From sequence record NC_049391.1: a DNA stretch of 37,100 bases; one strand, written 5' to 3'. The notes beneath the pieces are model-generated. The model worked only from the letters and a program-made list of their open reading frames with translations, searched no databases and had not been told where the DNA came from. This document shows, in pieces, positions 4,214-28,172 of this stretch (positions are counted from its first letter, which is position 1; every line of letters starts with the position of its first letter). Made by a program: the position numbers and the translations under genes. Source of the DNA: Xuanwuvirus P884B11.

Positions 4214-5266
4214 ATGAATCTGGTGATGTCAGATATTACCCGCAACAAGCTGGGTTGCTATATGGCGCAGCAGGCGTCGCTTAACAACATCCCGGTATCT
4301 GCACTGGTATCGCGATTTACCGTGGAACCCTCGGTGCAGCAGCGTTTTGAAAACGCAGTAAAGGAGAGCACTGAATTTACAAAAAAAATTAACGTGTTCG
4401 GTGTGACCGACCAGAAAGGCGAAAAAATCCTCCTGGACACCACCGGGCCGATTGCGCGCACGAATACCAGTTATGACGGCACAAAACGCCGTAACCCGAA
4501 TAACGTGGTTGATCTGAAAAACCGCAAATACCAGTGCGAACAGGTGAACTACGACACGTTTATTTCGTATCCGCAGCTTGATGCCTGGGCGGCACACCCT
4601 GATTTTCAGTCCCGCGTCAGCACACAGATTGCCCGGCAGGTGGCGCTTGACCGCATCATGATCGGTTTCAACGGCACGTCTCACGCAGATGAGTCCAACT
4701 TCAGCACCAACAAGCTGCTTCAGGACGTTAACGTGGGATGGCTGGAGCACATCAGAACCGACGCCAGCGAGCGCGTAATGAATGACGTGACGCTGACCTC
4801 CCGCAACATGGACAACACCGTGGCGCACGCGGGTAAGTATGCGAACGCTGATGCACTGGTACAGGACGCGCGCTCATCCCTGCTGGATGAATGGCACAAG
4901 GAAGCTGACGACCTCGTGGTGATTATGGGGCGCAACCTGTTTAACTCGCTGCGTCTGCCCGTGCTGAACAGCATCAGCGGCCAGAATCCCAATGCGGAAT
5001 TACTTGCCGGGCAGCTCATCCTGTCATCGCGCGCCATTGGCGGACTGGATGTATTCCTTGCGCCGTTCTTCCCGGATTCAACGATGCTGATCACCTCGTT
5101 CAACAACCTGTCGATTTACTGGCAGAAAGGAACAATGCGTCGCCTGATGAAAGACGAGCCGGAATACAACCGCATCGCCACCTACCAGTCCATCAATGAC
5201 GCTTATGTCGTTGAAGACTATGGCAAGTGCGCGATGGTCACTGGCCTGAAGTTCGCCGACAGCTAA
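4214..5266 (+). CDS. N: Major capsid protein, P2 gpN-like
   Basis: 350-aa ORF with AAGGAG RBS 9 nt upstream; FTVEPSV N-terminal motif and VEDY C-terminal region as in P2 N. Confidence 0.88.
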   Translation: MNLVMSDITRNKLGCYMAQQASLNNIPVSALVSRFTVEPSVQQRFENAVKESTEFTKKINVFGVTDQKGEKILLDTTGPIARTNTSYDGTKRRNPNNVVDLKNRKYQCEQVNYDTFISYPQLDAWAAHPDFQSRVSTQIARQVALDRIMIGFNGTSHADESNFSTNKLLQDVNVGWLEHIRTDASERVMNDVTLTSRNMDNTVAHAGKYANADALVQDARSSLLDEWHKEADDLVVIMGRNLFNSLRLPVLNSISGQNPNAELLAGQLILSSRAIGGLDVFLAPFFPDSTMLITSFNNLSIYWQKGTMRRLMKDEPEYNRIATYQSINDAYVVEDYGKCAMVTGLKFADS

Positions 5267-11611: not shown

Positions 11612-13762
11612 ATGAGTACCACAACACGAAAATTTAAAACCGTTATCACCGATACGGGTGCAAAAAAATTAGCGCAGGCAGCCGCGCCAGATGGTAAGCC
11701 TGTCCGCCTGACTCATATGGCCGTGGGCGACGGTGGCGGTACATTGCCCACACCTGACAGTAAGCAGACCCGTCTGGTGCATGAGGTGTGGCGACACGCT
11801 GTTAATCGCGTCATCCTGGACGCAACACATCAGAACCGCATTATTGCAGAGCTGGTTATTCCTCCAGAAACGGGCGGATTCTGGATCCGGGAAATTGGTG
11901 TATTTGATGAGCACGGCGATTTAATCGCGGTGGGCAATACTGCCGAAAGTTACAAGCCAGCCGTTGCCGAAGGGTCCGGTCGTGCACAAACATTTCGCAC
12001 CATTCTGACCGTATCCAGCACTGCCACCGTGGCGCTTACCGTGGATAACACCATGGTGATGGCCACAGTGGATTACGTGGATGACAAACTGAAAGAGCAT
12101 GAACAGTCACGACGTCACCCGGACGCCTCGCTGACCGCAAAAGGCTTTGTTCAACTCAGTAGCGCCACTAACAGCGTGTCTGAAACGCAGGCTGCAACGC
12201 CGAAAGCGGTTAAGGCCGCGTATGATCTTGCTAACGGTAAATATACTGCGCAGGATGCCAGCACGACGCGAAAAGGCCTTGTCCAGCTCAGTAGCGCCAC
12301 CAACAGCACGTCTGAAACGCAGGCTGCAACGCCGAAAGCAGTAAAGGCCGCGTATGATCTTGCTAACGCAAAATATACCGCTCAGGACGCCACGACAGCA
12401 CAAAAAGGGATTGTCCAGCTCAGTAGTGCCACCAACAGCACGTCTGAAACATTGGCCGCGACATCGAAAGCGGTTAAGGCGGTAATGGATGAAACAAATA
12501 AGAAAGCCCCATTAAACAGCCCGGCGCTGACCGGAACACCAACAACACCAACTGCGCGACAGGGAACGAATAATACCCAAATCGCAAGCACGGCTTTCGT
12601 TATGGCTGCGATTGCCGCCCTTGTAGATTCGTCACCTGATGCACTGAACACGCTGAACGAGCTGGCTGCGGCGTTGGGCAACGACCCGAATTTTGCGACC
12701 ACCATGACTAACGCGCTTGCGGGTAAGCAACCGAAAGATGCCACCCTGACGGCGCTGGCCGGGCTTGCTACTGCGGCAGACAGGTTTCCGTATTTTACGG
12801 GGAATGATGTCGCCAGCCTGGCAACTCTGACAAAAGTCGGGCGGGATATTCTTGCGAAATCGACCGTTGCCGCCGTTATCGAATACCTCGGTTTACAGGA
12901 AACGGTAAACAGGGCTGGTAACGCCGTGCAAAAAAATGGCGATACCTTGTCCGGTGGGCTTACTTTTGAAAATGACTCAATCCTTGCCTGGATTCGAAAT
13001 ACTGACTGGGCGAAGATTGGATTTAAAAATGATGCTGATGGTGACACTGATTCATACATGTGGTTTGAAACAGGCGACAACGGCAATGAATATTTCAAAT
13101 GGAGAAGCCGCCAGAGCACCACAACAAAAGACCTGATGACGCTGAAATGGGATGCACTAAATATTCTGGTAAATGCCGTCATTAATGGCAGTCTTGGAGT
13201 TGGTACGACGAATGCGTTAGGTGGTAGCTCTATTGTTCTTGGTGATAATGACACCGGATTCAAACAGAATGGTGATGGTATTCTGGATGTTTACGCTAAT
13301 AGTCAGCGAGTATTCCGCTTTCAGAATGGAGTTGCTATTGCTTTTAAAAACATTCAGGCAGGTGATAGTAAAAAGTTCTCGCTATCCAGCTCCAACACCT
13401 CCACAAAGAATGCAACGTTTAATTTATGGGGTGCTTCAACCCGTCCAGTAGTTGCAGAGTTAGGCGATGAGGCAGGATGGCATTTCTATAGCCAGCGAAA
13501 TACAGATAACTCGGTAATATTTTCTGTTAACGGTCAGATACAGCCCAGCAACTGGGGGAATTTTGATTCACGCTATGTAAAAGATGTTCGCCTGGGTACG
13601 CGAGTTGTTCAATTGATGGCGCGTGGTGGTCGTTATGAAAAAGCCGGACACGCAATTACCGGATTAAGAATCATTGGTGAAGTAGATGGCGATGATGAAG
13701 CCATCTTCAGACCAATACAAAAATACATCAATGGCACATGGTATAACGTCGCACAGGTGTAA
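11612..13762 (+). CDS. H: Tail fibre protein H (constant N-terminal part fused to currently expressed variable C-terminal tip)
   Basis: 716 aa; the crossover site lies in frame at codons about 422-430 (IEYLGLQE); C-terminus ends INGTWYNVAQV, mirrored by the inverted silent tip (INGTWYNAGSI). Confidence 0.85.
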   Translation: MSTTTRKFKTVITDTGAKKLAQAAAPDGKPVRLTHMAVGDGGGTLPTPDSKQTRLVHEVWRHAVNRVILDATHQNRIIAELVIPPETGGFWIREIGVFDEHGDLIAVGNTAESYKPAVAEGSGRAQTFRTILTVSSTATVALTVDNTMVMATVDYVDDKLKEHEQSRRHPDASLTAKGFVQLSSATNSVSETQAATPKAVKAAYDLANGKYTAQDASTTRKGLVQLSSATNSTSETQAATPKAVKAAYDLANAKYTAQDATTAQKGIVQLSSATNSTSETLAATSKAVKAVMDETNKKAPLNSPALTGTPTTPTARQGTNNTQIASTAFVMAAIAALVDSSPDALNTLNELAAALGNDPNFATTMTNALAGKQPKDATLTALAGLATAADRFPYFTGNDVASLATLTKVGRDILAKSTVAAVIEYLGLQETVNRAGNAVQKNGDTLSGGLTFENDSILAWIRNTDWAKIGFKNDADGDTDSYMWFETGDNGNEYFKWRSRQSTTTKDLMTLKWDALNILVNAVINGSLGVGTTNALGGSSIVLGDNDTGFKQNGDGILDVYANSQRVFRFQNGVAIAFKNIQAGDSKKFSLSSSNTSTKNATFNLWGASTRPVVAELGDEAGWHFYSQRNTDNSVIFSVNGQIQPSNWGNFDSRYVKDVRLGTRVVQLMARGGRYEKAGHAITGLRIIGEVDGDDEAIFRPIQKYINGTWYNVAQV
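12133..12490 (+). repeat. Three tandem ~126-bp (42-aa) repeats inside tail fibre gene H
   Basis: Near-identical units encoding G(F/L/I)VQLSSATNS(V/T)SET(Q/L)AAT(P/S)KAVKA...; visible as DNA repeats. Boundaries approximate. Confidence 0.8.
12876..12901. other. Invertase crossover site (gix/hix/cix-like), left, inside H
   Basis: TTATCGAATACC-TC-GGTTTACAGGAA; inverted repeat of the right site with complementary central dinucleotides (TC vs GA); matches the Gin/Hin-family site pattern of 12-bp half-sites around AAACC..GGTTT. Confidence 0.8.
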
Positions 13763-13765
13763 ATT

Positions 13766-14293
13766 ATGCAGCATTTAAAAAATATTAAGTCCGGAAATCC
13801 AAAAACAAAAGAACAATATCAGCTAACAAAGAATTTTGATGTTATCTGGTTATGGTCCGAAGACGGTAAAAACTGGTATGAGGAAGTAAATAACTTTCAG
13901 GACGACACCATAAAGATTGTATACGACGAAAATAATATTATTGTTGCCATAACCAAAGATGCCTCAACGCTTAATCCCGAAGGCTTTAGTGTCGTTGAGA
14001 TTCCAGATATAACAGCCAATCGTCGTGCCGATGATTCAGGGAAGTGGATGTTTAAGGACGGAACTGTGGTTAAGCGGATTTATACAGCAGACGAACAGCA
14101 ACAACAGGCCGAATCACAAAAGGTCGCGTTGCTTTCTGAAGCTGAAAGCGTTATTCAGCCACTGGAACGCGCTGTCAGGCTGAATATGGCGACGGATGAG
14201 GAACGCACACGACTGGAGTCATGGGAACGCTACAGCGTTCTGGTCAGCCGTGTGGATACAGCAAATCCCGAATGGCCACAAAAGCCTGAGTAA
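13766..14293 (+). CDS. G: Tail fibre assembly protein (chaperone), P2 gpG-like
   Basis: 175 aa directly after H; N-terminus [22 protein letters not shown] is shared with the inverted paralogue at 14322-14855. Confidence 0.85.
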
Positions 14294-14321
14294 AAATTAA
14301 GGCCCAATATCGAGCCTTCTC

Positions 14322-14855
14322 TCATTCTGGTTGTTCGGGAAACGTTACTGGCAGGCTGGAGGTGTCTGTAGATTCGACTTTCTGCGCATAGAGCATCCAC
14401 TCGGTTAATTTTTGTTTATTCTCGTCGGAAATGATGCCCAGCCGTAGCTGTGAGTCCCATAGCTGGGTTTTATCCCTGACAAGTTGCAACAGGCTTTGCT
14501 TTTCATTTTCCGCTTGTTGCCTCTGCTCTTCCTCGGTATAAGTTCGCTTTATCACTACGCCATCTTTGAACAACCATTTCCCCGAAATATCAGCCCGGCG
14601 ATTTGCTGTAATATCAGGTAATTCAACGACGCTTGCGCCTTCCGGATTAATTGCTGAAACATCCTTTTCAATACAAATAATAACGCCGTTATGGTCATAG
14701 ACCATTTTCAAAGTGTCTGGCTGGAAATTCTTTTGTTCCTCATACCAGTTTTTTCCATCATCTGAATAAAGCCATTTGATGTTAAATTGCTTTGTTAGCT
14801 GGTATTGCTCTTTTGTTTTAGGGTTGCCAGCAGTAATGTTTTTTAAGTGCATCAT
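14322..14855 (-). CDS. Alternative tail fibre assembly protein (G-prime) in the invertible segment
   Basis: 177 aa on the minus strand; N-terminal 40 aa nearly identical to G, C-terminus diverged; follows the alternative fibre tip. Confidence 0.8.
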   Translation of the reverse strand: MMHLKNITAGNPKTKEQYQLTKQFNIKWLYSDDGKNWYEEQKNFQPDTLKMVYDHNGVIICIEKDVSAINPEGASVVELPDITANRRADISGKWLFKDGVVIKRTYTEEEQRQQAENEKQSLLQLVRDKTQLWDSQLRLGIISDENKQKLTEWMLYAQKVESTDTSSLPVTFPEQPE

Positions 14856-14857
14856 CG

Positions 14858-15553
14858 TTAAATACTCCCCGCGTTATACCACGTCCCATTAATGCAATAC
14901 TGAATTGGCCTTGCCTGTGTTGTATCAATTAATTCATCACGGTTTCCGTTAACTGAACCCGTAACGACATAACCTGACCTGTCAGACCAGCCGGGACCAT
15001 TCCATGTCTGAACAGATGACAGACCGCCAAGGCGAATACCTGTAATAAACCTTGAGTTACATTCTGCCTGCGTATATGCACCAACATCTCCCGCTGAAGG
15101 TTTTCGTGTCGTGGTATAGAAATCTGACCAACCTAATTCAAACCCATAACCATCACGAGCCGACCTGTAGGAAATGCCACCATTTTTATAATTCACACGG
15201 AATTGTACGGCAGGACAGCTACCAGCATTTATATTAAAGTGAAGAATTAATGCAGATGCACCACTAATCAGGGCGTTATATGCACCACTATCCCAATTCC
15301 ATCCAACGGATGTATCACCATTAACAGTATTACCTGTTTGTCGGAGTGCAAATGCATTGACATTTTTGGCACTAATTGAAATATCGCTAGAACCATCAAA
15401 ACCAACTCCAGCAATTTTTCGTGCTGTTTTCAGCTTTGTTGCAGTAGCGGCATTGCCGGACAGTTCCCCAGAAAGGCCACCGCTGAATGTTTGTCGATTG
15501 GTCCAGGTATTCGCTGTACTGAGTAACGGTATTTTCTCCCCGCTTGTGCCGAG
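14858..15553 (-). CDS. Alternative tail fibre C-terminal segment (promoterless; becomes fused to H after inversion)
   Basis: Minus-strand frame is open from the right crossover site down to the stop at 14858, in the phase that continues H across the site; no start codon or RBS of its own at the 5-prime end. Confidence 0.75.
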   Translation of the reverse strand, partial: LGTSGEKIPLLSTANTWTNRQTFSGGLSGELSGNAATATKLKTARKIAGVGFDGSSDISISAKNVNAFALRQTGNTVNGDTSVGWNWDSGAYNALISGASALILHFNINAGSCPAVQFRVNYKNGGISYRSARDGYGFELGWSDFYTTTRKPSAGDVGAYTQAECNSRFITGIRLGGLSSVQTWNGPGWSDRSGYVVTGSVNGNRDELIDTTQARPIQYCINGTWYNAGSI

Positions 15554-15579
15554 TTCTCGTAAACCGAGGTTTTAAATAA
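15554..15579. other. Invertase crossover site (gix-like), right, adjacent to invertase gene
   Basis: TTCTCGTAAACC-GA-GGTTTTAAATAA, close to the Gin/Hin-family site consensus as I recall it; inverted relative to the site at 12876-12901. Confidence 0.8.
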
Positions 15580-15632
15580 TGGCCGTTTCTGGCCTGCATG
15601 GCATGATTTGCGCTTTTGGACGGGAGATTCAG

Positions 15633-16233
15633 TGTGCTGATTGGCTATGTAAGGGTATCAACAAATGACCAGAATACAGACCTGCAACGAAACGCTCTTG
15701 TTTGTGCAGGATGTGAACAAATATTTGAAGATAAATTAAGCGGGACAAAGACAGACCGACCGGGATTAAAACGCGCTTTAAAGCGCCTTCAAAAAGGTGA
15801 CACGCTGGTTGTCTGGAAACTGGATCGCCTCGGGCGAAGCATGAAACATCTGATTTCTCTCGTCGGGGAACTACGGGAGCGAGGGATTAATTTTCGCAGT
15901 CTGACCGACAGCATAGACACATCTTCTCCAATGGGGCGTTTTTTCTTCCACGTGATGGGTGCCCTAGCTGAAATGGAACGTGAATTAATTGTTGAACGTA
16001 CACTGGCCGGGCTGGCGGCAGCGCGCGCAAGGGGACGCACAGGCGGACGTCGACCGAAGCTGACAAAAGAACAGCATGAGCAAATAGCAAGGCTAATCAA
16101 AAACGGGCACGACAGAAAACAACTGGCAATAATTTACGGCATTGGCACATCGACGATTTATCGTTATCACCCTGTAGGCGATATACAGACTGAAGAAACA
16201 ACCGGGCAGACTCAGGAAAATGAAAACCGCTAA
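15633..16233 (+). CDS. Serine DNA invertase, Gin/Pin/Cin/Hin family
   Basis: GTG start with GGGAGA RBS (track offers TTG 15616); LIGYVRVSTNDQNTDLQRNAL catalytic N-terminus and C-terminal HTH, very close to Mu Gin / e14 Pin as I recall them. Confidence 0.9.
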
Positions 16234-16252
16234 TCTGACCATTAGCGGTTTT
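16223..16252. terminator. Bidirectional intrinsic terminator between invertase and U (convergent)
   Basis: Perfect 12-bp stem AAAACCGCTAAT / ATTAGCGGTTTT with 6-nt loop and T-run; overlaps the invertase stop codon. Confidence 0.6.
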
Positions 16253-16261
16253 TGTGTTAAA

Positions 16262-16756
16262 TCAGAACAGCCCTTTAACTGAACTGGCCGCGCTGTTAAG
16301 AGATGATGTCACCTTATCTTTGAAGCCGGACAGCATATCACTGAACGATGAGGATTGCAGGCGCTCCCGCAAATCCTCATCACAGCGTTCAAGAGTCAGT
16401 GAAAATTCTATCTTTTTCGCCTTACCGTAGCGATCAAACTCGGAGCGGGTCGTATTCGTTTCAGTCAGGACATACATGCCGTAAATCTGCCCGACGCCAT
16501 CAATCAAAGGCCAGGGTCGTCCTGTATACGCCTGCGTGGTCAGCAGCGACAGCGACACTTCGCCACCTGTAATTTCAGGATAAAGCACACCAGAAAGAAC
16601 GATGCGATCATCACCTGCACCGATATACTGCCAGCTTGCTGAACGGTTAACGCGTTCATTTTTCACATGCCGCCAGCTTTTGTTTTGCTGTAACTGCTGA
16701 TGCGGCAGCGTGCGCAGCTCAAAAACAAACATGCCGTAGATCATCATCATGGCCAT
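16262..16756 (-). CDS. U: Tail protein, P2 gpU-like
   Basis: 164 aa; follows the tape measure in transcription direction, as U follows T in P2. Confidence 0.8.
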   Translation of the reverse strand: MAMMMIYGMFVFELRTLPHQQLQQNKSWRHVKNERVNRSASWQYIGAGDDRIVLSGVLYPEITGGEVSLSLLTTQAYTGRPWPLIDGVGQIYGMYVLTETNTTRSEFDRYGKAKKIEFSLTLERCDEDLRERLQSSSFSDMLSGFKDKVTSSLNSAASSVKGLF

Positions 16757-16762
16757 GACTCC

Positions 16763-19606
16763 TCAATCTTTATCGTAAAAACTGCCACGCCCGGCACGGG
16801 CGCGCCGTTCCATTTCTGCCCTGACCATTTCACCGACCAGTTTCGCCAGTTCGCGGGGATTCTGCGTAACAACGTTATGCAGATGAACATGAATTTCACC
16901 ACCAAATCCGGAGGCAACAGGCTCCCGGTTACGGGAAGTTACAGGAACTGATGCCACTGGAGATCGTATAGCCTCCGCCACCGGGCGGGAGCTGGCCGCA
17001 ACAACAGGGACCAGCGCCGGAGGCAGCGGAGCCGGGACCACGGGTGTGATATTAATTGCGGGGGCAGGCTTACTGACCTGCGCAATCTTCCGCTCCTGCC
17101 ACTCCCCACGAACAGCAAGTGCTCGGGGCAGGTTTTTAAAGACAATATCGCCGGGGCCAATGCGTTTTTTCGTCTCCTCAACCAGCTTACCTGTGTTATC
17201 AGCAATTTTGCTGAGTCTGCGCAGCGTACCGGTATTGCTGTCTGTGAGCGGTTTATTGTCTTTGGGGTTATCACCTCCGGTGCCATTGCCATTTTCCACA
17301 GGCTTCGGCGGATTGATTTTCGCCAGGTCCCCCTGAAGCAAGGCAACCTTGTCCTGAAGAATGGCCGCACGCTGTGCGTCTTCGATTTTCTTGCGCGCCC
17401 TTTCCGCTTCATCCGGAAGCACACCAAGCTTTTCAAGTATCCACGCCAGCGTATCCAGCAACATTTTTGCAGGTGTCAGAACAAGTTGTAACGCACCGCC
17501 AAGAACGTTACCGAATATCTCGCCAGCACTGGTACATTTATCCAGAGTTTCCTTGCTGGACTCCATCGGTGACAGCAGCGATTTAAACCAGTTAAACACC
17601 TGGCTGATCCCACTCCCGATTGCGTCAAAAACAGGACCAAACCGTTCAAAGGTTTCGCGCAACGGGGTCAGCCTTTCCATAATCCCGCTGAACACCCCGG
17701 CAAAAAATGCCCTGATGGGATCCCAGTATTTCCAGATAAGAACGGCAGCTCCGGCAAGCGCAGCCACGATAAGACCAACCGGACTGAACAACGCCCCGAT
17801 AGCGCCTCCCAGTAAAGAAACGGAACCCGTCACCATTCCCCATAGTGCTGGCAGAACCCTGACAGCATTCATTGATCCGGTCAGGAGGGAAAAACCAAGA
17901 CGCAGTTTTGCCAGCGGGCCAGCAAGCACACCAATAGCCAGCGACAACGAGCCAACCGTTGCAGTCATTGCCAGCAGTGCACCGCCTGCAATCAGTAGCT
18001 GGCGCGTCAGTGCGGGATGGGCCTGCGCCAGCGCCGTCACCTTTGATACCACACGCGTGAGCCACTGCGTGACAGAACGCAGCGGACCGTCAATCAGATC
18101 TGCAATGCGGATGCGCAACCCTTCCCATGCACTGCTGAGTGATTTCAGATCGCCGTCAAGGTTGTTGGCCATAACCTTTGCCGTGCGTTCAGCCTCACCG
18201 CGCGCGCCTTCAAGTTCTTTTCTCAGTTTGGGTAAGGAGCCGTCACCTGCCGCATCAACGAGGGCCATAAATGATGTGAAAGCCTCTTCTCCGGCAATGT
18301 CCTTAAAGAACGATACCCGGTCAACTTCCCCGTATTTGCGGGTAGCTTTATAAAGGTCAGCCAGCACATCCTCCATCGGGCGCATTTTGCCCCCGGCATC
18401 CGAGACAGACACGCCAAGCTCTTTCAGCGCCTCTGCTGCCGCCTTTGGCGGTGATGCCAGACGAGCCAGGCTGGCACGCATTGCCGTACCAGCATCACTC
18501 CCCCTGATACCCATATTCGCCAGTACGCCCGCCATCGCTGCGGCCTGCTCCAGCGATATTCCCAGCTTACCCGCCACCGGACCTGCATATTTCATGGTTT
18601 CACCCAGTGCGCGAAGGTCAGTGTTGGTACGGGTAAACGCTGCGGTGAGTGTGTCGCCGACCCGGTCCATCTGGTCAGCAGAAAGACCGAACTGCGTCAG
18701 AATATTTGAGCCAATATCCGCCGTCTCACCGAGGTCCATACCGCCAGCCGTTGCCATGCTCAGTACGCCAGGGAGCGCAGCCTGAATGGCCTGTGGTGTA
18801 AAGCCAGCCATTGCAAGAAATGCCTGTCCACTGGCGGCATCGCCTGCGGTGAACTGCGTTTCAGAGCCAAGTTTTAACGCCTGCTCACGCAGCGCCTTAA
18901 ACTGCGGGCTGTTCTGGTCGATTCGCGTCAGTGCCTGAACGCGGGACATATCTTTGCCGAACCCGATCGCAGGCTGCAAAAAACGCCCGGCAGCATAGCC
19001 GCCCGCCGCTGCCGCACCAATTGCCAGCGCACCACCTGTTTTCAGTTTTCCCGCTGTTTCCTGCGCGCGCGAATACCGCTCACGCGCCCGTGTTACACGC
19101 GCAAGCGCCTGCCGTTCGCGTTCAAGCTGGTTGTTGTACTGTTCGGTGCGTCTGATGGCCTGCTGGATGGTGTTATCGCTGCCTGTCAGGGAAATGCCGT
19201 GGCGTTTCAGCTCTCCGCCAAGCTCCCGCATTTTCTGAATTTCCCGTGTGCGCGATTCATTCAGGCGTTCAAGCCGGGTGCTTAACTGCTGCATCAGCTT
19301 TTGTTGTTTTTCGCTGAGCACTGTACCCGTGCGTTGTAACTGATTAAGGGCGTTAAGCTGGCGTCGTGCTTTCACGATGCCCGCATCCGCTTTACTGACA
19401 GCGTCACGGGCGCGCTCAAATGATCGCGCCTGACGCTCGAGATTTTTGATCGCCCCCTGCGTTCGCTGGATGGAGTCACCAAACTGCCCCATCAGGCGGC
19501 GGGCGTTTTCGGCAGGCCGGGTCAGCCTGTCAACGGCGCTGAAAGCGACCCGGATATCAAGAGTCTTCATTGTCTGCATTCCCGCTACGAAGTGCCGCCC
19601 GCTCAC
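16763..19606 (-). CDS. T: Tail tape measure protein, P2 gpT-like
   Basis: 947 aa, Ala/Gly-rich with coiled-coil N-terminus and hydrophobic central segments; follows the E/E-prime chaperone pair. Start ambiguous (GTG 19606 or ATG 19579/19570). Confidence 0.85.
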   Translation of the reverse strand: MSGRHFVAGMQTMKTLDIRVAFSAVDRLTRPAENARRLMGQFGDSIQRTQGAIKNLERQARSFERARDAVSKADAGIVKARRQLNALNQLQRTGTVLSEKQQKLMQQLSTRLERLNESRTREIQKMRELGGELKRHGISLTGSDNTIQQAIRRTEQYNNQLERERQALARVTRARERYSRAQETAGKLKTGGALAIGAAAAGGYAAGRFLQPAIGFGKDMSRVQALTRIDQNSPQFKALREQALKLGSETQFTAGDAASGQAFLAMAGFTPQAIQAALPGVLSMATAGGMDLGETADIGSNILTQFGLSADQMDRVGDTLTAAFTRTNTDLRALGETMKYAGPVAGKLGISLEQAAAMAGVLANMGIRGSDAGTAMRASLARLASPPKAAAEALKELGVSVSDAGGKMRPMEDVLADLYKATRKYGEVDRVSFFKDIAGEEAFTSFMALVDAAGDGSLPKLRKELEGARGEAERTAKVMANNLDGDLKSLSSAWEGLRIRIADLIDGPLRSVTQWLTRVVSKVTALAQAHPALTRQLLIAGGALLAMTATVGSLSLAIGVLAGPLAKLRLGFSLLTGSMNAVRVLPALWGMVTGSVSLLGGAIGALFSPVGLIVAALAGAAVLIWKYWDPIRAFFAGVFSGIMERLTPLRETFERFGPVFDAIGSGISQVFNWFKSLLSPMESSKETLDKCTSAGEIFGNVLGGALQLVLTPAKMLLDTLAWILEKLGVLPDEAERARKKIEDAQRAAILQDKVALLQGDLAKINPPKPVENGNGTGGDNPKDNKPLTDSNTGTLRRLSKIADNTGKLVEETKKRIGPGDIVFKNLPRALAVRGEWQERKIAQVSKPAPAINITPVVPAPLPPALVPVVAASSRPVAEAIRSPVASVPVTSRNREPVASGFGGEIHVHLHNVVTQNPRELAKLVGEMVRAEMERRARAGRGSFYDKD

Positions 19607-19793
19607 GCCAGCTAACCACTTCGCCGGGCGTCATCATGAAGATTTCGGCGGGCGACCAGTTAAAAATGGCGGCAATATCCGCCACCAGATCTTCGATGTG
19701 CTCAAAGCACACCAGGGTGATTACGCTGCCGTCTCCTGCACGCTCTTCGCGCCAGAGTCTGGCTCGCTCATAAAATTTACAGCCACAGCGCAC
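19557..19793 (-). CDS. E-prime extension (made as an E+E-prime fusion by programmed -1 frameshift)
   Basis: Open -1 frame overlapping the 3-prime end of E and running into the T start; a run of seven A on the coding strand (plus-strand T7 at 19819-19825) sits just 5-prime of the overlap. Confidence 0.6.
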   Translation of the reverse strand: MRCGCKFYERARLWREERAGDGSVITLVCFEHIEDLVADIAAIFNWSPAEIFMMTPGEVVSWRERAALRSGNADNEDS

Positions 19794-20095
19794 AACTGAA
19801 TAAAATCGCGTGACGACATTTTTTTAATCATCACTTCATCCAGTCGTGGCGAGGTCACGCGAGGCAACAGCGTAAACATGGTATCCGCTTTCAGATTCAG
19901 CACATCAGACAGCGACAGACCACGCAGGGATCCAGCCTGCTCAATAGCCCCGGTGATCTCCACATACGTGATTTTTTCGCCACCACGCTCAATTGGTCGG
20001 GTCAGTTTTACGCCACGTTCGACAGCCATATCCTCACCTGCCGTCACATCATCCGCCACGGTGTTATTCCGGGTTTCAGTATCGATGTCTTTCAT
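19721..20095 (-). CDS. E: Tail assembly chaperone, P2 gpE-like
   Basis: 124 aa with AAGGAG RBS 7 nt upstream; GSLRGLSLSDV region aligns with P2 E (GTLRGVSLAAV). Confidence 0.8.
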   Translation of the reverse strand: MKDIDTETRNNTVADDVTAGEDMAVERGVKLTRPIERGGEKITYVEITGAIEQAGSLRGLSLSDVLNLKADTMFTLLPRVTSPRLDEVMIKKMSSRDFIQLCAVAVNFMSEPDSGAKSVQETAA

Positions 20096-20150
20096 CAGTT
20101 GTCTCCTTTTCAGTCAGAGGCGACGCACTGCGCCGCCTGCATATTACTTA

Positions 20151-20663
20151 TCAGCCAAGCCCAAGCGCGGAACGGATACGGTCAGGCACAATGTCCTTGC
20201 CGTCCTTCCGGTAGATGTGGTTCAACAGGTCGATTTCCCACAGCGGGCGATCGTTAACGCTCAGCTTGTAGTAGGTGTTTTTGACAGCGTAAGTGTGTGA
20301 TGTGGCTTCGCCCTGTTTGGCTTCCCCCATATCAATTTCCGTCACACGCCCGCGCATCTCGATTTCATACAGATCGCTTTCTGCATCGGTGTAGTATTCA
20401 CCCGCAAAACGCAGCAGCGTGCCGTCAATCGTGCCGCCATATTTAAGGAACAGCGCACGAACAGCTCCCCCCATGACAAAACTCGCATCAAGCGCGGAGT
20501 CGTCCAGACCGAGATCAATACTTACCGCCCCCATCATGCCACCACCACGATAGCTGTCGGTTTTGCGCGTCAGTTTGGGCGGCGTGACGGATGTCACTTT
20601 GCCCACTTCGTTTTCACCATCCACAAACAACGTAAAAAAGCGAAGATGTTTTGGTACAGCCAT
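20151..20663 (-). CDS. FII: Tail tube protein, P2 gpFII-like
   Basis: 170 aa; PKLTRK..YRGGGM..DLGLDD matches P2 FII motifs. Confidence 0.88.
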   Translation of the reverse strand: MAVPKHLRFFTLFVDGENEVGKVTSVTPPKLTRKTDSYRGGGMMGAVSIDLGLDDSALDASFVMGGAVRALFLKYGGTIDGTLLRFAGEYYTDAESDLYEIEMRGRVTEIDMGEAKQGEATSHTYAVKNTYYKLSVNDRPLWEIDLLNHIYRKDGKDIVPDRIRSALGLG

Positions 20664-21847
20664 CAGGCACCTCCCAGCACCGCAAATGCGGGACCAAAGA
20701 ATTCATCAGTAAACGTCTGGTAAAGCTCCATGTCTTCCAGTGGCGGAACGGGCGTATATTTGTAGCGAATACGCACACGTCCCTGACGTAAATTCGTGGT
20801 GCCGTTATCCACCACGTCATACCAGCACTCCGCACCAATCAGTTTCCCGGCAGTAACCAGCGAATCCAGTTTTGCCCTGATGGCGCTGATAACATCCTTC
20901 ACGTTCGCAGGTGTCAGTGGACTGTCGATGGTTTCAAACTGCGCTTCCGCAATTGAATCAGCCAGCACCTGTGCGGTTCGGGTATACACCTCAAAGATGT
21001 AGGCGTTCGTTTCCGGTGTGCGGTTGCCCCAGAAGCGGAACCCGTTGCGACGAATAATGGTCGTGATTTCTTTGTTGTTGAGGCTGTTGGCATCACTGTC
21101 TTCGGCCTGCAACGACCAGAACACATGCCTGGACATTCCCAGCACATTTTTAACCGGAACGTTGGACAGCGATTTGTGCCAGCCCTGCTCATGGTCAATG
21201 TACGCACGAAGGCCGCACGCATAAGCAGGCGCGGGGAACGTTTCGTTTTTGCCACTTTTCGGGTTGTAGGCGATGAAGTCAGGCCATAAGAGCATCACCT
21301 CACGTTCGTTGAATTTCTGGCGGTAGGTAATCGCCTCAGCCATCGTGTTACAACCATGACATGTGGCATACACAAACGCGCGCAGTTTACCCGCAATCAC
21401 GCACAAGGATTTTGTCACCGCCTCCGTGTCCAGCTCCGGCGCGGCCAGAATACGCGGACGGTATCCGATGCTTTCATCCTGCTCTGCAACAAGCAGCGCA
21501 TACATCCCCGTATAGCTGCCGTCAGATTCAGAACCACCGATAACCAGTTGATCCTGCGTTTTTCCGTCTTCTTCTTTGTGTTCAGCCACGCGAACGACGA
21601 TCACCTTTGTGCTCACCTGGTCTGCGATGGCCTTAAGCGCACGATAAAGCGTCCCCGTTGTTCCGCATTTTCCCAGCACGTCATTGACGCGGGTCAGCAA
21701 TGTGGGCTTGTTCAGCGGGAACAGCTCCGCGTCCGCATCATCCGCCGTTACCACGATACCGATAACGCTGGAATCAACATCGTTAATCGCTGTTACCAGG
21801 TCGGTATTTTCCGTAACACGGGCACCATGAAAACGAGTTTCACTCAT
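20663..21847 (-). CDS. FI: Contractile tail sheath protein, P2 gpFI-like
   Basis: 394 aa; motifs DADAELFPLNKP, QGWHKSLSNV, RRNGFRFWGNRT, YKYTPVPPLE match P2 FI. Confidence 0.9.
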   Translation of the reverse strand: MSETRFHGARVTENTDLVTAINDVDSSVIGIVVTADDADAELFPLNKPTLLTRVNDVLGKCGTTGTLYRALKAIADQVSTKVIVVRVAEHKEEDGKTQDQLVIGGSESDGSYTGMYALLVAEQDESIGYRPRILAAPELDTEAVTKSLCVIAGKLRAFVYATCHGCNTMAEAITYRQKFNEREVMLLWPDFIAYNPKSGKNETFPAPAYACGLRAYIDHEQGWHKSLSNVPVKNVLGMSRHVFWSLQAEDSDANSLNNKEITTIIRRNGFRFWGNRTPETNAYIFEVYTRTAQVLADSIAEAQFETIDSPLTPANVKDVISAIRAKLDSLVTAGKLIGAECWYDVVDNGTTNLRQGRVRIRYKYTPVPPLEDMELYQTFTDEFFGPAFAVLGGA

Positions 21848-22004
21848 AGCTTCAGCCCCTTGTATCCGTTAAATGATTCGGCAACAATCATCACCCACCA
21901 CGCGCGTAATCTCACCCCTGCGCCGTTCTCCCGCCACGGCGACAACAAAAAGCAGTAACCCCCTCCGCACGCACATGCGACCATGCCGCACAGGGAGGGA
22001 ACAG

Positions 22005-23114
22005 ATGACCGACACCACCATGCAATTGCTCAGTCAGGGCACAGACCCCGTGAAAATGCCGGATTTTGATATTCTCGCGGAGGGTAAAACGCTGTCAGGC
22101 GTGGCAGAGCGCCTGATGAGCCTGTCACTGACCGACAACCGGGGATTTGAGGCGGACCAGCTCACCATCACGCTGGATGATGCAGATGGTCAGTTGCAGC
22201 TACCGCCACGGGGCGCGCGCCTGACGGTTCTCATTGGCTGGAAAGGAGAACCGCTGACAGAAAAAGGCACTTACATTGTTGATGAAATCGCTCACGAAGG
22301 ACCGCCGGACAGGCTGACTGTTTCAGCCAGAAGCGCAGATTTTCGGGATGAATTTAACGTTAAACGTGAGGTGTCCTGGCATGATGTGACCGTTGAGCGT
22401 GTGGTATCCGCCATCGCTCATCGGTACGGTCTGAAACCGCAAATCAGCGAAATGCTGATGGATATCGAAATCGACCACGCCGACCAGACCGAAGAAAGCG
22501 ACATGTCCTTTCTTACGCGCATGGCGGAAATGCTGGGCGCAATCACCACGGTAAAAAGCGGTAATCTGTTATTCATTATGCCAGGCGGTGGCGTGAACGC
22601 ACAGGGCCAACCGTTGCCATCGTTCGCCATCACGCGCAGCAGTGGCGATCGCCATCAGTTCCGCATTGCTGACCGCGAAGCGTATACGGGTGTACGCGCC
22701 TACTGGCTTGATCTTAATTACGGGAAAAAGAAAAAAGTCAGCGTGAAACGCCGCAAACCGCCAAAACCCAAAAAGGAGAAAAGCAGCAGCCGTGAAGGTG
22801 ATTATATGGAAGGCGCGGAAGGAAATGTGTTTGTGTTACGCAAGACTTATCAGAACGAGCAGGCAGCAAGACGCGCAGCGGCGGCAAAGTGGCAGCAGCT
22901 ACAACGCGGAGCCGCATCATTCTCCATCACACTGGCTCGTGGACGCGCAGAACTCTACCCCGAAATGCATGGCACGGTAACAGGATTTAAAAGCGAGATT
23001 GATAATCAGGACTGGATTATTGCGAAAGCCGATCACACCATTGATAACAGTGGCTTTACCACGCAGCTTGAGCTTGAAGCAAAAATTCCGGAATGGATAG
23101 CAGAAACAGAGTGA
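22005..23114 (+). CDS. D: Tail/late gene D protein, P2 gpD-like
   Basis: Start at MTDTTMQ with GGGAGGG RBS (track ORF starts at 21873, overlapping FI); about 369 aa. Confidence 0.8.
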   Translation: MTDTTMQLLSQGTDPVKMPDFDILAEGKTLSGVAERLMSLSLTDNRGFEADQLTITLDDADGQLQLPPRGARLTVLIGWKGEPLTEKGTYIVDEIAHEGPPDRLTVSARSADFRDEFNVKREVSWHDVTVERVVSAIAHRYGLKPQISEMLMDIEIDHADQTEESDMSFLTRMAEMLGAITTVKSGNLLFIMPGGGVNAQGQPLPSFAITRSSGDRHQFRIADREAYTGVRAYWLDLNYGKKKKVSVKRRKPPKPKKEKSSSREGDYMEGAEGNVFVLRKTYQNEQAARRAAAAKWQQLQRGAASFSITLARGRAELYPEMHGTVTGFKSEIDNQDWIIAKADHTIDNSGFTTQLELEAKIPEWIAETE

Positions 23115-24411: not shown

Positions 24412-24990
24412 ATGAATGATGATGGACAAGCTATCTTCTATGGCGCTTATAGTATCGGAACAGCTTTAGCCGAAATTAATGCAAAAGAAGGGGATTATGT
24501 TCACATAGCTCACTTTAAGATGCCGGAAAATTCAGAGTCTGGAATGCGATGTTTTGCTATCGGTGAGGTCTTTAATGTGTATCACGGTGTAAATACAATT
24601 TCAATTGAAGTGTTTAATGAAATTCGCGACATCATTAGCAGAATTGGTAAGGACGACATCCGAGCTTTGCTATCATATTTGTATATGGATGCCCTTTCTG
24701 CTGAGTTGCTTAATAGTATCAATGCCCATGAGGTAAATTATATTTACTCAAGAATTTTTTGCCGTCTTCTTCTTGATAAATACCCTGATGTTGATGGTCT
24801 TATTTATCCTAGCGCTAAAATAAAAGGGGCCTCAAATATCGCTTTGCGCACAGAAACAGTTAAATTGAGAATGCATTTAGTTGCTAATCTTGTGTTTAAA
24901 GTAAATAAAATTTATCCATATGGAATAGTAGATTTCAGTATAGTAAAACAAGCCAAAGGACATACATCAGATGGGCGCATCGTTTGGTGA
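24412..24990 (+). CDS. RES-domain protein (putative NAD-targeting toxin family), C-terminal part
   Basis: 192-aa ORF; the frame is open upstream to give GR-MNDDGQAIFYGAYSIGTALAE (GRxN...Y...E pattern) and later DGLIYPSAKIKGASNIAL (PS motif), the hallmark RES residues as I recall the family. Confidence 0.55.
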   Translation: MNDDGQAIFYGAYSIGTALAEINAKEGDYVHIAHFKMPENSESGMRCFAIGEVFNVYHGVNTISIEVFNEIRDIISRIGKDDIRALLSYLYMDALSAELLNSINAHEVNYIYSRIFCRLLLDKYPDVDGLIYPSAKIKGASNIALRTETVKLRMHLVANLVFKVNKIYPYGIVDFSIVKQAKGHTSDGRIVW

Positions 24991-25200
24991 GCCAAACTTT
25001 TAGTTAGCTGATTGAAAAACCGATGCGTCAGTTTGCACTGCATGTGGTGTATGGGAAGCGCGGGCTTGTAGTGCAGGTCATTTCAGAAGAAGCTAACGAG
25101 AAAGCTTAGACATACTGTGACTACTAAACAAGCAGAAAGCCCGTGTTTATGGGGGCAATCCACACAACAGGCGATGTCGATTAGTTAATACACTTGTATG

Positions 25201-25307
25201 AATAGAGACTCATTTTTGTGCATTAAGGAATCAGGCTTTCAGTCATCTTGCCTCTGCGCGAGGTTCGGGCTATCGAACCTCAATTCCTTAACTGAACTAC
25301 ATTGCCC
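25201..25307. repeat. Right ~110-bp terminal inverted repeat of the 1.49-kb element
   Basis: Reverse complement of the left repeat at 23822-23931. Confidence 0.8.
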
Positions 25308-25502
25308 TATCTCACAGCTCTAAATGCAAAAATCCCATGAAACTGTGGGTATTTCATCACACACTGACACTGCTCTACCTTTCTATATGTATCACTCTAA
25401 ACCAGTTAATCAATTGGCACTTATCAACAACAAAAAATCTGATAAAATCAAAATGTTTTGTAACAAATTTCAGCTTGTAGTGTTCCAAAGGAGACGGATT
25501 AC

Positions 25503-25835
25503 ATGGCATTAATCAAATGTCCTGAATGCCAGAAAGAGGTCAGCGATTCAGCATTATGTTGCCCTGCTTGTGGTAAACAACTGAAAAAACTTAAGCGTTC
25601 ATTTTTTGGAAAACTCATTAAATGGGCTTTTATATTTTTTAATATTTTTATGATCTATACACTTTTAGTTGGACTAGGAGGCGCTGATGAAATAATAAAC
25701 AATACCACATCCGATGCCGAAAAAGCTGGGGCAGTTATTGGTACGGGCTTAGGTTTAATTGTCATTGGAGGCTTATGGGTTATTGGCGATATCATTATCG
25801 GAATTTTAGTATTTCTTACTAAACCAAAGGGATAA
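25503..25835 (+). CDS. Small zinc-ribbon inner-membrane protein (hypothetical)
   Basis: 110 aa; CPEC...CCPACG zinc ribbon, then two hydrophobic helices; AAGGAG RBS; AT-rich codon usage unlike the phage core. Confidence 0.6.
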   Translation: MALIKCPECQKEVSDSALCCPACGKQLKKLKRSFFGKLIKWAFIFFNIFMIYTLLVGLGGADEIINNTTSDAEKAGAVIGTGLGLIVIGGLWVIGDIIIGILVFLTKPKG

Positions 25836-25839
25836 TAAA

Positions 25840-26733
25840 ATGAAAAATATGATTTTTACTATAGGTGCATTATTTATATCAATTAGTGTACTGCCTGTTC
25901 ACGCAGCAACTGAACATAAGAATTTCAATGCAGTGCTCCAGTGCCGAGCGATAGAAAACAATAAAGACAGACTTTCTTGTTATGATAAGTCAATACAACC
26001 GACTCGAACGAAAGTTGCTGAAAAATTTGAAAGCAGGGATCAATGCCCTGATGAGAAAGATGATGACAAACGTTTATCTTGTTATGATCGTTTTTTTTCT
26101 CCAACATTTACTCCATCTGTAAACTCAAAATCTAAAACGGAAAAGCTAGTAACAACAGAGGCTCAGCAACCAAATCTTTCTGAAATATCTAAATGCCGAG
26201 CAGAAAATGATAAAGAAACCAGACTAAACTGCTACGATAAACTATTCCCACAGGATGAAGCTGTTCAATCTGAATCACAATTAGAGAAAGCCACAGATGC
26301 AGGAAAATGGCACACGTCCATTACTACATCGCCAATTGATGATTCGAAAAATGTAATTTTATCGTTAGAAAGTGATGATTATATCAGAACTCCATTTGGA
26401 GAAGCTGTTACTCCCACTCTGTTTATAGCTTGCCGAGAAAAGAAAACCGAAGTATTTCTTAGTTGGGATGTATATTTAGGCCTTGAACAAACCAGCATGC
26501 TGTATCGTCTTGATAAACAGAAAGCAGTTGAAAGAAACTGGCTAATATCTACAGATACAAAGGCTGTTTTTTATAAAGGTAATGATATTGATTTCATAAG
26601 AAAACTTGCCAACTCACATAAAATGTACACAAAAATAACCCCCTATAATGAAAGCCCTGTAAGTGCAACTTTCAATTTAAGCGGCCTGTCAAATGCACTA
26701 AAACCGCTTCAAGATGCTTGTAACTGGAAATAG
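25840..26733 (+). CDS. Secreted (periplasmic) protein with three tandem Cys-pair repeats (hypothetical)
   Basis: 297 aa; signal peptide ending VHA-A; three copies of C-x11-C-YD(K/R) (QCRAIENNKDRLSCYDK, QCPDEKDDDKRLSCYDR, KCRAENDKETRLNCYDK); starts 5 nt after the previous ORF; AT-rich. Confidence 0.6.
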   Translation: MKNMIFTIGALFISISVLPVHAATEHKNFNAVLQCRAIENNKDRLSCYDKSIQPTRTKVAEKFESRDQCPDEKDDDKRLSCYDRFFSPTFTPSVNSKSKTEKLVTTEAQQPNLSEISKCRAENDKETRLNCYDKLFPQDEAVQSESQLEKATDAGKWHTSITTSPIDDSKNVILSLESDDYIRTPFGEAVTPTLFIACREKKTEVFLSWDVYLGLEQTSMLYRLDKQKAVERNWLISTDTKAVFYKGNDIDFIRKLANSHKMYTKITPYNESPVSATFNLSGLSNALKPLQDACNWK

Positions 26734-26754
26734 TATATACCTCCCCAATATCAG

Positions 26755-26792
26755 ATGACAAAACGCCCGTGAAAACGGGCGTTTTGTCATCT
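26755..26792. terminator. Intrinsic terminator-like hairpin after the accessory cassette
   Basis: Perfect 16-bp inverted repeat GATGACAAAACGCCCG / CGGGCGTTTTGTCATC with a 6-nt loop, T-run within the 3-prime arm. Confidence 0.6.
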
Positions 26793-27071
26793 GTAACTCG
26801 AAAATGTGGTCATTGCGTGGACATACGATGATATAAATCCTTTTATATCAAAAGATTAAACCACTATTATTTTCCTCAACAAGGATTTTTAACCCTTTTT
26901 CAGTCTCTGACAATCTAAGGCTCCTTTATCAACAAACGCCCATTTGCAAACTGCTGTTTAATCTGAAAAAACATTAATAATCACACAGATAACAACATAA
27001 CCATTTAGACGGGCAATACTGAAAAATTGTTATTCAGTATCGCCCTTTAAGCCGTTTCAGGCTATATAAAA

Positions 27072-28076: not shown

Positions 28077-28172
28077 TACGAAGCCCTCCAATGAACCGCT
28101 CTACAATTTCTCCAGCCTCTTTCCAGCAATAATCAGACCAGACAAAAAGCAGGTCTAACCAGTTTTCTGGCC

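Follow-up and report, generated by a model that had tools for sequence, protein, structure and literature searches.

The DNA analysed here, hereafter the window, is the whole 37,100-nt sequence of Xuanwuvirus P884B11 (NC_049391.1). It appears to represent a complete phage, in which the head, tail, lysis and replication modules are all full. The locus under study (12876-16233) extends from a first crossover site, located within the tail-fibre gene H, to the stop codon of a gene encoding a DNA invertase, and upstream of H lie the baseplate genes gpV, W, J and I, recognized by the Pfam Tail_P2_I and gpV spike domains. The locus is 97.4% identical in nucleotide sequence to that of phiSM, which is classified in Xuanwuvirus, and the phage is accordingly assigned to this genus (P88/phiSM group) of the family Peduoviridae. 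An earlier, sequence-only reading of this DNA proposed a Gin/Pin-type switch within a P2-like locus. The P2-like context is borne out by the gpV-W-J-I neighbourhood and by an amino acid identity of 84% between H and P2 gpH, and the switch by a Gin-like invertase and two sites, although the genus is Xuanwuvirus and not that of P2. The features of the locus are collected in Table 1.

Table 1. Features of the tail-fibre locus of P884B11, with positions in the window
Feature	Position	Strand	Basis or remarks
Hc, constant 5' part of H	11612..12887	+	Outside the segment; supplies both tips with promoter, start codon and 425 N-terminal aa
Left crossover site (gix-like)	12876-12901		Inside H; TTATCGAATACC-TC-GGTTTACAGGAA; core TC 12888-12889
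Variable 3' part of H, expressed, P2 gpH-type tip	12888..13762	+	Comparison with P2 gpH
G, assembly chaperone of the expressed tip	13766..14293	+	Pfam Caudo_TAP, E=2.5e-36
G', alternative chaperone, silent here	14322..14855	-	Pfam Caudo_TAP, E=1.1e-36
H'v, alternative variable tip, Mu S'-type	14858..15565	-	Translation; without start codon
Right crossover site (gix-like)	15554-15579		Minus strand TTATTTAAAACC-TC-GGTTTACGAGAA; core 15566-15567, GA on the + strand
Spacer, right site to invertase start	15580..15633	+	GGGAGA Shine-Dalgarno sequence
Gin-family serine DNA invertase, 199 aa	15634..16233	+	Pfam Resolvase, E=1.4e-50; HTH_7, E=4e-13
Candidate recombinational (Fis) enhancer	15656..15741		Within the 5' end of the invertase ORF
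Hairpin terminator where the invertase and gpU genes converge	16223..16252		Stem of 12 pairs, then a run of T

The H ORF (11612-13762) encodes in the present orientation a product of 716 aa, whose constant part has, according to Pfam, an N-terminal Phage_tail_fib domain and three copies of the Phage_fiber_2 repeat. The expressed tip is nearly identical to the C-terminal ca. 410 aa of P2 gpH. It is also 46% identical overall to Mu Sv, the first ca. 110 aa being almost identical, and in the PDB it matches 5yvq, protein S of the Mu tail fibre (E=6e-83). The G gene that follows matches both P2 G and Mu U in DNA comparisons. The second cassette of the segment faces the first, so that G and G', the latter a counterpart of Mu U', are convergent; both are intact Caudo_TAP genes, and one chaperone is found behind each tip. 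Along most of their length the two tips show no relationship. H'v ends like Mu S', with an identity of 88% over its C-terminal 165 aa that is complete over the last ca. 95 aa.

The two crossover sites share 21 of 26 positions, are inverted with respect to each other, and have a common core, TC, when read in one sense. With gixL from the Mu record as the reference, the left site matches at 24/26 positions and the right site, inverted, at 22/26, while the best match obtained by chance across 200 dinucleotide shuffles was 19/26. The right site also aligns with Mu gixR without gaps. The locus has therefore the arrangement of a Din-type system, with two inverted 26-bp sites, imperfect half-sites of 12 bp and an identical 2-bp core, and the complementary cores that had been proposed (TC and GA on the + strand) are indeed present, as is the bracketing of the 3' part of H plus G together with an inverted alternative tip and its chaperone. 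No other match to gixL above 17/26 was found anywhere in the 37,100 nt, and a search of the whole window for the core motif, allowing one mismatch, rendered these two sites and no third. A multi-site, shufflon-like system of the Min/p15B type is thus ruled out, there being only two sites in the whole sequence. A further candidate, the opposite-strand tail block U-T-E-FII-FI (16262-21847), was considered as a second, larger segment inverted by the same invertase and rejected, as neither an inverted repeat nor a gix-like site was found to flank it; the same arrangement is found in phiSM and P88 and is a fixed feature of the genus.

The reading frame of the silent tip is open exactly up to the right site. 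On the minus strand it runs ...TAA AAC CTC GGT TTA CGA..., where the TAA (15574-15572), located in the outer half of the right site, closes the frame, and the core-bearing CTC codon shares its phase with the CTC (Leu) codon of H. No ATG is found in the first ca. 120 codons of H'v, the first listed start being a GTG at 15196. Inversion in silico of 12888-15567 generates a single ORF of 661 aa (...AAVIEYLGLRELGTSGEK...NGTWYNAGSI*), in agreement with the proposal that the alternative tip is in phase with H; the tip has no start codon of its own. A scan for consensus promoter sequences found no promoter-like site upstream of H'v, and no strong sigma-70-like promoter upstream of the invertase gene, with fewer hits than expected by chance (4 versus 6.3), a level at which the scan is uninformative.

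The invertase most likely starts at the GTG at 15634 (MLIGYVRVST...) rather than at the TTG at 15616. Its N-terminus, MLIGYVRVSTNDQ, is the same as that of Gin, the catalytic Ser9 is kept, and the top two matches in the PDB, 4m6f and 3uj3, are 193-aa entries described as "DNA-invertase" (E about 1e-100). Comparison with Mu Gin showed 154 identical residues out of 181 (85%), with 119/120 within residues 1-120, in line with its earlier description as almost Mu Gin-like. The gene is a mosaic, whose break falls where the catalytic domain gives way to the DNA-binding domain. The C-terminal DNA-binding domain is only ca. 54% identical to Mu gin at the nucleotide level, so that the site preference of the enzyme could differ in detail from that of Gin.

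The distance from the core of the right site to the start of the invertase gene is 68 nt, equal to that in Mu, and the spacer is 80% identical to that of Mu and 94% identical to that of P88; by analogy with Mu, it may contain the invertase promoter. From the site onward no indels are found with respect to Mu, and over its first 200 nt the gene differs from gin at only three positions (197/200 identical). Two stretches of this region, at 15656 and 15704, fit the Fis consensus; their centres are separated by 48 bp, and both are identical in Mu, at the same offset from the core. As judged by sequence conservation, this region is a candidate enhancer with two Fis sites; in Mu, the enhancer is reported to lie in the 5' part of gin (Kahmann et al. 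1985). The near-identity of the enzyme to Gin, and of this region to the Gin enhancer, suggests that inversion would need Fis and negative supercoiling.

The window itself, being a single assembled sequence, contains one orientation only, in which the P2 gpH-type tip is joined to Hc. Near-identical prophage copies were compared in 282 complete genomes of Escherichia coli in which the 4.7-kb locus is collinear. The orientation found here was present in 136 of them and the inverted form in 146, and the predicted inverted junction was found full-length in nature, with an identity of up to 99.9%; inversion could be recognized on copies that are 98-99.9% identical. In the near-clonal strains NU14 and UTI89, alignment of the DNA of the four junctions mapped a reciprocal exchange within the stretch shared by the sites, ACCTCGGTTTAC. 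The flanking proteins have identical accessions in both strains, and the invertase is identical to that of P884B11 at all 199 residues. In another clonal pair, 33E and 32F4, a precise exchange is likewise seen inside the sites, with an invertase that is 100% identical to that of P884B11. Fibre proteins of exactly 661 aa are annotated in UTI89 and 32F4, and in NU14 and 33E the silent tip fragment is labelled a pseudogene by RefSeq. Our literature search rendered no published note on the inversion between NU14 and UTI89. Sequence comparison thus indicates that, in near-identical copies, the segment inverts by exchange at the sites.

These results also bear on other possible sources of the two orientations. 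Homologous recombination between inverted stretches, dependent on RecA, could produce such a polymorphism, and an inverted repeat of 40 nt with 78% identity does exist within the segment (13709-13748 and 14872-14911); alternatively, the polymorphism could arise in assembly, as regions flanked by repeats can be mis-oriented by assemblers. The exchange maps, however, to the 26-bp sites and not to the 40-nt repeat, and the 12-13 bp of identity in the sites are far below what RecA needs. Moreover, the same precise junction is found in independent finished genomes obtained with different sequencing technologies, and a repeat of 26 bp is no obstacle to assembly from long or Sanger reads. An origin of the polymorphism in either RecA or assembly is therefore extremely unlikely.

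It could also be the case that P884B11 has inherited the sites and the invertase but that this copy no longer inverts, the phage having in effect a fixed fibre of the P2 type, for instance through lack of invertase expression or of a compatible Fis in the host. The single orientation in the assembled sequence and the lack of a strong sigma-70-like promoter before the invertase in the consensus scan would fit with such a relic, although the latter carries little weight given the uninformative level of that scan. Against it, the NU14/UTI89 prophage, which is known in both states, has an identical invertase protein and an identical pair of sites, the two orientations are close to 1:1 over the 282 genomes, and the ORFs of the silent tip and chaperone are intact. 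Loss of inversion in this copy is thus very improbable. Finding one orientation only, together with a dead invertase, had been put forward as evidence that would count against the switch. What is found instead is an abundance of both orientations, and an invertase in which Ser9 and the catalytic domain are kept. We infer with high confidence that 12888-15567 (2,678 bp, core to core) is a switch of the Mu G-segment type, with two tips that each have their own chaperone. The tail-fibre switch is genuine and, as the near-identical copies indicate, very probably active.

H is thus split by the 26-bp site; its promoter, its start codon and its first 425 codons remain outside the segment, which holds two convergent cassettes, each with a fibre tip and a dedicated assembly chaperone. 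In the mechanism that we propose, the invertase, whose gene lies immediately beyond the right site, would bind both sites as dimers, and strand exchange at the 2-bp TC core, presumably assisted by host Fis bound to the enhancer within the 5' part of this gene, would flip the segment. The present orientation would give the 716-aa fibre with its P2 gpH-type tip and chaperone G, and the inverted one a fibre of 661 aa, which would have a Mu S'-type tip, and chaperone G'. A population of lysogens would then release two types of virion, expected to bind different receptors in the LPS core, and the two host ranges that had been predicted for this phage may exist by analogy with Mu and P1. Along with the difference in host range, the dependence on Fis and the rate of switching are presumed.

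The closest known systems are those of Mu and D108, whose G segment and gin are ca. 92% identical in nucleotide sequence to the segment and invertase described here, and with which the architecture Sc / gix / Sv-U / U'-S'v / gix / gin is shared. In contrast to Mu, Hc and the entire tail module are here of the P2 family, the alternative tip is shorter (235 versus 318 aa) with a distinct proximal part, the segment is shorter (3,058 bp in Mu, core to core), and the invertase has, besides its diverged DNA-binding domain, a longer C-terminal tail than Gin. The C segment of P1/P7 (Cin) and the P segment of e14 (Pin) are 90-93% identical in nucleotide sequence over parts of the segment, and they too are tail-fibre cassette switches served by Fis-dependent invertases of the same family; their constant fibre parts and backbones are different, and the invertase here is closest to Gin. 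Within the genus, P88 and phiSM share the backbone and the order of the locus, with the invertase, two chaperones and the inverted tip, although the expressed tip of P88 is longer and different (61% coverage). The invertase is annotated in both records, but inversion is not mentioned in the published host-range paper on P88, and the phiSM paper speaks only of "a predicted DNA invertase" and does not discuss inversion. On the other hand, P2 itself has a nearly identical tip and a homologous G but neither the second cassette, nor the right site, nor the invertase, its G being followed by a terminator and fun(Z), in agreement with the earlier statement that canonical P2 has a fixed H-G.

A switch of this kind in a P2-like phage has a precedent in the Salmonella prophage Fels-2, for which tail-fibre inversion associated with a pin/fin homologue, STM2702, has been described, with opposite orientations in strains LT2 and LT7 (PMC7953296). 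According to the published description, Fels-2 is also a P2-family phage with a Gin/Pin-type tip switch, and the evidence from sister strains resembles that from NU14 and UTI89, while host and sequences are different. The mechanism is that of the textbook Gin/G-segment system, already known and common in prophages of E. coli. It could be considered that the switch mainly serves the lysogen, with the invertase working in trans at other Din-type segments or affecting surface or defence phenotypes, a role put forward recently for PinQ/PinR of cryptic prophages. It is well established that invertases of the Din family cross-complement, and papers on PinQ/PinR report effects on phage defence of inversions in cryptic prophages. 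The switch is located here, however, in an apparently complete phage, and both cassettes encode complete fibre tips with their chaperones, so that a role mainly in the lysogen is very improbable.

How the switch came to be in this locus can be approached from P2, whose H holds the left crossover site with one mismatch. The earlier reading considered the switch to be grafted onto a P2-like locus; the context is P2-like as stated, but the grafting itself is not established, since P2 H keeps the left site and the fixed H-G of P2 may equally represent a derivative that has lost the switch. Modular exchange of tail fibres is a subject on which related ideas have long been discussed. In this regard, the gix site could serve, besides being the point of flipping, as a point of site-specific exchange of fibre cassettes between otherwise unrelated phages. 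The homology to Mu, which starts precisely at the left site, the retention of this site in P2 H and the mosaic nature of the invertase gene, which breaks at a domain boundary, are all compatible with such exchange, which we nonetheless consider unlikely. If it did take place, a resident Din invertase from a prophage of this kind could work in trans at relic sites, that of P2 H being one example, and tips could be captured by, or swapped between, co-resident prophages.

With a textbook mechanism and a documented P2-like example in Fels-2, the locus opens no new question. It has, on the other hand, practical consequences for this group of phages. A tail fragment annotated as "incomplete" or "hypothetical" beside an invertase gene is to be read as the silent half of a switch rather than as a pseudogene, and prophages of this kind have two valid forms of the tail-fibre protein. 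Studies of the host range of P88-like phages, whether in phage biology or in therapy, should control for the orientation of the segment.

The invertible tail-fibre switch that the sequence-only reading had proposed was confirmed by its crossover sites, its in-phase alternative tip, its Gin-like invertase and the occurrence of both orientations in genomes, and its interpretation as a Gin-type switch at a P2-like locus is likewise supported. A repeat finder returned the inverted repeat pair 12872-12901 / 15554-15583, within which the two 26-bp sites, identical to each other at 21 of 26 positions, each consist of two 12-bp half-sites flanking a common TC core. When Mu gixL, taken from the Mu record, was scored against all 26-mers from both strands of the window, the two sites reached 24/26 and 22/26, with 17/26 for the next best position and a top score of 19/26 in 200 dinucleotide shuffles. 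A core-motif search of the window, with one mismatch allowed, rendered no sites besides these two. Inside the segment there is also a 40-nt inverted repeat (78%; 13709-13748 / 14872-14911), which corresponds to the conserved C-terminal ends of both otherwise unrelated tips (RPIQ.YINGTWYN motif) and was ruled out as a recombination point in the strain pairs examined.

Features of the tail-fibre locus and of the integrase region
Feature	Position	Strand	Description
gpV, W, J, I genes	upstream of tail-fibre locus		P2-type
Tail-fibre gene H	11612-13762	+	716-aa ORF
Left site	12876-12901		TTATCGAATACC-TC-GGTTTACAGGAA; base-by-base reading
Chaperone G	13766-14293	+	Caudo_TAP protein
Second chaperone G'	14322-14855	- (opposite to G)	Caudo_TAP protein
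Alternative tip	14858 up to right site	-	start-less open frame
Right site	15554-15579		other strand: TTATTTAAAACC-TC-GGTTTACGAGAA; base-by-base reading
Serine recombinase (invertase) gene	end 16233		ORF call begins TTG 15616
RES-domain protein	24412-24990		cargo-like
Zinc-ribbon protein	25503-25835		cargo-like
VasI/type VI secretion-associated-like protein	25840-26733		cargo-like
Tyrosine integrase	27072-28091	-	

The alternative-tip frame reads TAA-AAC-CTC-GGT-TTA-CGA on the minus strand, closed by the stop in the outer half-site, and its core-containing CTC is in phase with a CTC (Leu) of H, inversion of 12888-15567 in silico producing a single continuous fibre of 661 aa. Overall, H and P2 gpH share 84% identity, and in the last ~410 residues they are nearly identical; therefore, the currently expressed tip is the P2 tip. 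The silent tip resembles Mu S', the G(-) fibre, its C-terminal 165 aa being 88% identical and the final ~95 residues identical. The shaft of H contains three tandem 132-nt repeats (44 aa, Phage_fiber_2; 12139-12534); P2 gpH has one fewer, the locus of the relative phiSM is ~132 nt shorter and the H protein of P88 is longer (764 aa), so that close relatives differ in how many repeats the fibre shaft has.

The invertase is predicted, almost certainly, to start at GTG 15634, after a GGGAGA Shine-Dalgarno sequence, which gives an N-terminus (MLIGYVRVST...) matching that of Mu Gin. The protein, with Resolvase and HTH_7 domains, is 85% identical to Mu Gin and matches it at 119 of 120 positions of the catalytic domain, Ser9 included; the two top entries in a search of solved structures, 4m6f and 3uj3, are each labelled DNA-invertase. 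Of the first 200 nt of the gene, 197 are identical to Mu gin; in Mu, this stretch carries the Fis-dependent enhancer (Kahmann et al. 1985). The window phage and Mu have identical Fis-consensus matches, whose centres lie 48 bp apart, and the distance from core to invertase start is 68 nt in both. Identity to Mu gin is 94% over nt 1-360 but only 54% over the DNA-binding domain (nt 361-543), which retains 93% nucleotide identity with P88, and the invertase gene (15634-16233) is therefore a mosaic. In the C-terminal tail, which is longer, it departs even from P88.

A search of 5,426 complete E. coli genomes used the inverted junction, as predicted, and the entire 4.7-kb locus in its inverted form. 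The junction had full-length matches with up to 99.9% identity and, with collinearity defined as coverage of 80% or more at a single place, the inverted locus was found in 146 genomes and the native one in 136, two non-overlapping sets, since a genome with one orientation is unable to reach 80% with the opposite query. A single orientation, named in the sequence-only reading (together with an inactive invertase) as contrary to a switch, is thus not what these genomes contain. In NU14 and UTI89 the locus lies at almost the same chromosomal coordinate in opposite orientations, between proteins with identical accessions; the sites are identical, as is the common invertase (199/199 to that of the window), and UTI89 is annotated with a 661-aa fibre, the length predicted. 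Alignment of the four junctions revealed a clean reciprocal exchange within ACCTCGGTTTAC, common to both sites. A second pair, from one Swiss farm study, 33E (5,288,964 bp) and 32F4 (5,288,962 bp), differs by this same swap, flanks and invertase being identical, and the inverted junction is also present in two phage records (520873 and 503458). The exchange in the strain pairs maps to 12-13 bp of identity, less than RecA needs. The switch is very probably active. In E. coli 99-3311 (NZ_CP101310.1, 2047406-2053419) an IS3-family transposase lies within the locus, which matches in two pieces over ~6 kb. RefSeq records the silent tip of native-orientation genomes as a pseudogene ('incomplete; missing N-terminus'; positions 4759-5256 of NU14 locus L002, 4759-5469 of 33E locus L007) and the displaced P2-type tip of inverted ones as 'hypothetical protein' or 'phage tail fiber protein', labels that amount to a systematic artefact in how invertible cassettes are annotated.

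The sequence-only reading had the switch grafted onto a P2-like locus, which was not established, since the left site occurs in P2 gene H itself with one mismatch (locus L006, AF063097, about 2400-2426, against window 12876-12901; TTATCGAATATCTCGGTTTACAGGAA), ATC for ACC beside the core. P2 has neither invertase nor second cassette, with a terminator and fun(Z) coming right after its G, and a P2 that lost the switch is no less plausible than a window phage that gained it. Elsewhere in the genome, minus-strand genes for gpU, tape measure, E/E', FII tube and FI sheath form a tail block that immediately follows the invertase (from 16262), and gpD (21873-23114) is on the plus strand; compared with the gene order of P2, the FI-to-U block is thus inverted. 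No inverted repeat or gix-like site was found flanking this block and its arrangement recurs in phiSM and P88, which makes it look like a trait fixed in the genus. The cargo-like genes beside the tyrosine integrase (24412-28091) are matched in the phiSM record by annotations of 'TagO' and hypothetical proteins.

The 4.7-kb locus is 97.4% identical to that of Citrobacter phage Shae_phiSM (Peduoviridae, Xuanwuvirus) and 99.9% to E. coli prophages; in P88, another member of this genus, the genes come in the same order and a DNA invertase is annotated. The G segment and gin of Mu/D108 show ~92% DNA identity to the window, starting exactly at the left site. The system is a textbook Gin/G-segment switch, known too as P1 Cin/C and e14 Pin/P, on a P2-family backbone. 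The combination is already documented and the switch is of an ordinary, well-known kind. Both P88 and phiSM have this very element, annotated, in their public genomes. The P88 host-range paper makes no mention of inversion anywhere, and the sole remark on the switch in the phiSM paper is 'a predicted DNA invertase'. In Fels-2, inversion of a tail-fibre gene between Salmonella LT2 and LT7 was attributed to the adjoining pin homologue (PMC7953296). A systematic survey found programmed inversions enriched for tail fibre, 'phage tail protein I' and tail-fibre assembly genes, and long reads confirmed such inversions in prophages (PMC9881135).

Judging by the near-identity to Mu, invertase dimers bound at both sites of the supercoiled DNA would come together in a synapse with the enhancer and its bound Fis, and cleavage at the TC core through Ser9, rotation and religation would flip the segment. 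The H promoter, start codon and 425 codons would remain constant outside it, followed, depending on orientation, by Sv-G (P2-type tip and chaperone) or S'v-G' (Mu S'-type), so that each tip would come with its own chaperone. Mu inversion equilibrates slowly in the prophage state, and the near 1:1 ratio of orientations among lysogen genomes fits such behaviour. Since most of each tip is unrelated to the other, the two would be expected to confer different host ranges.
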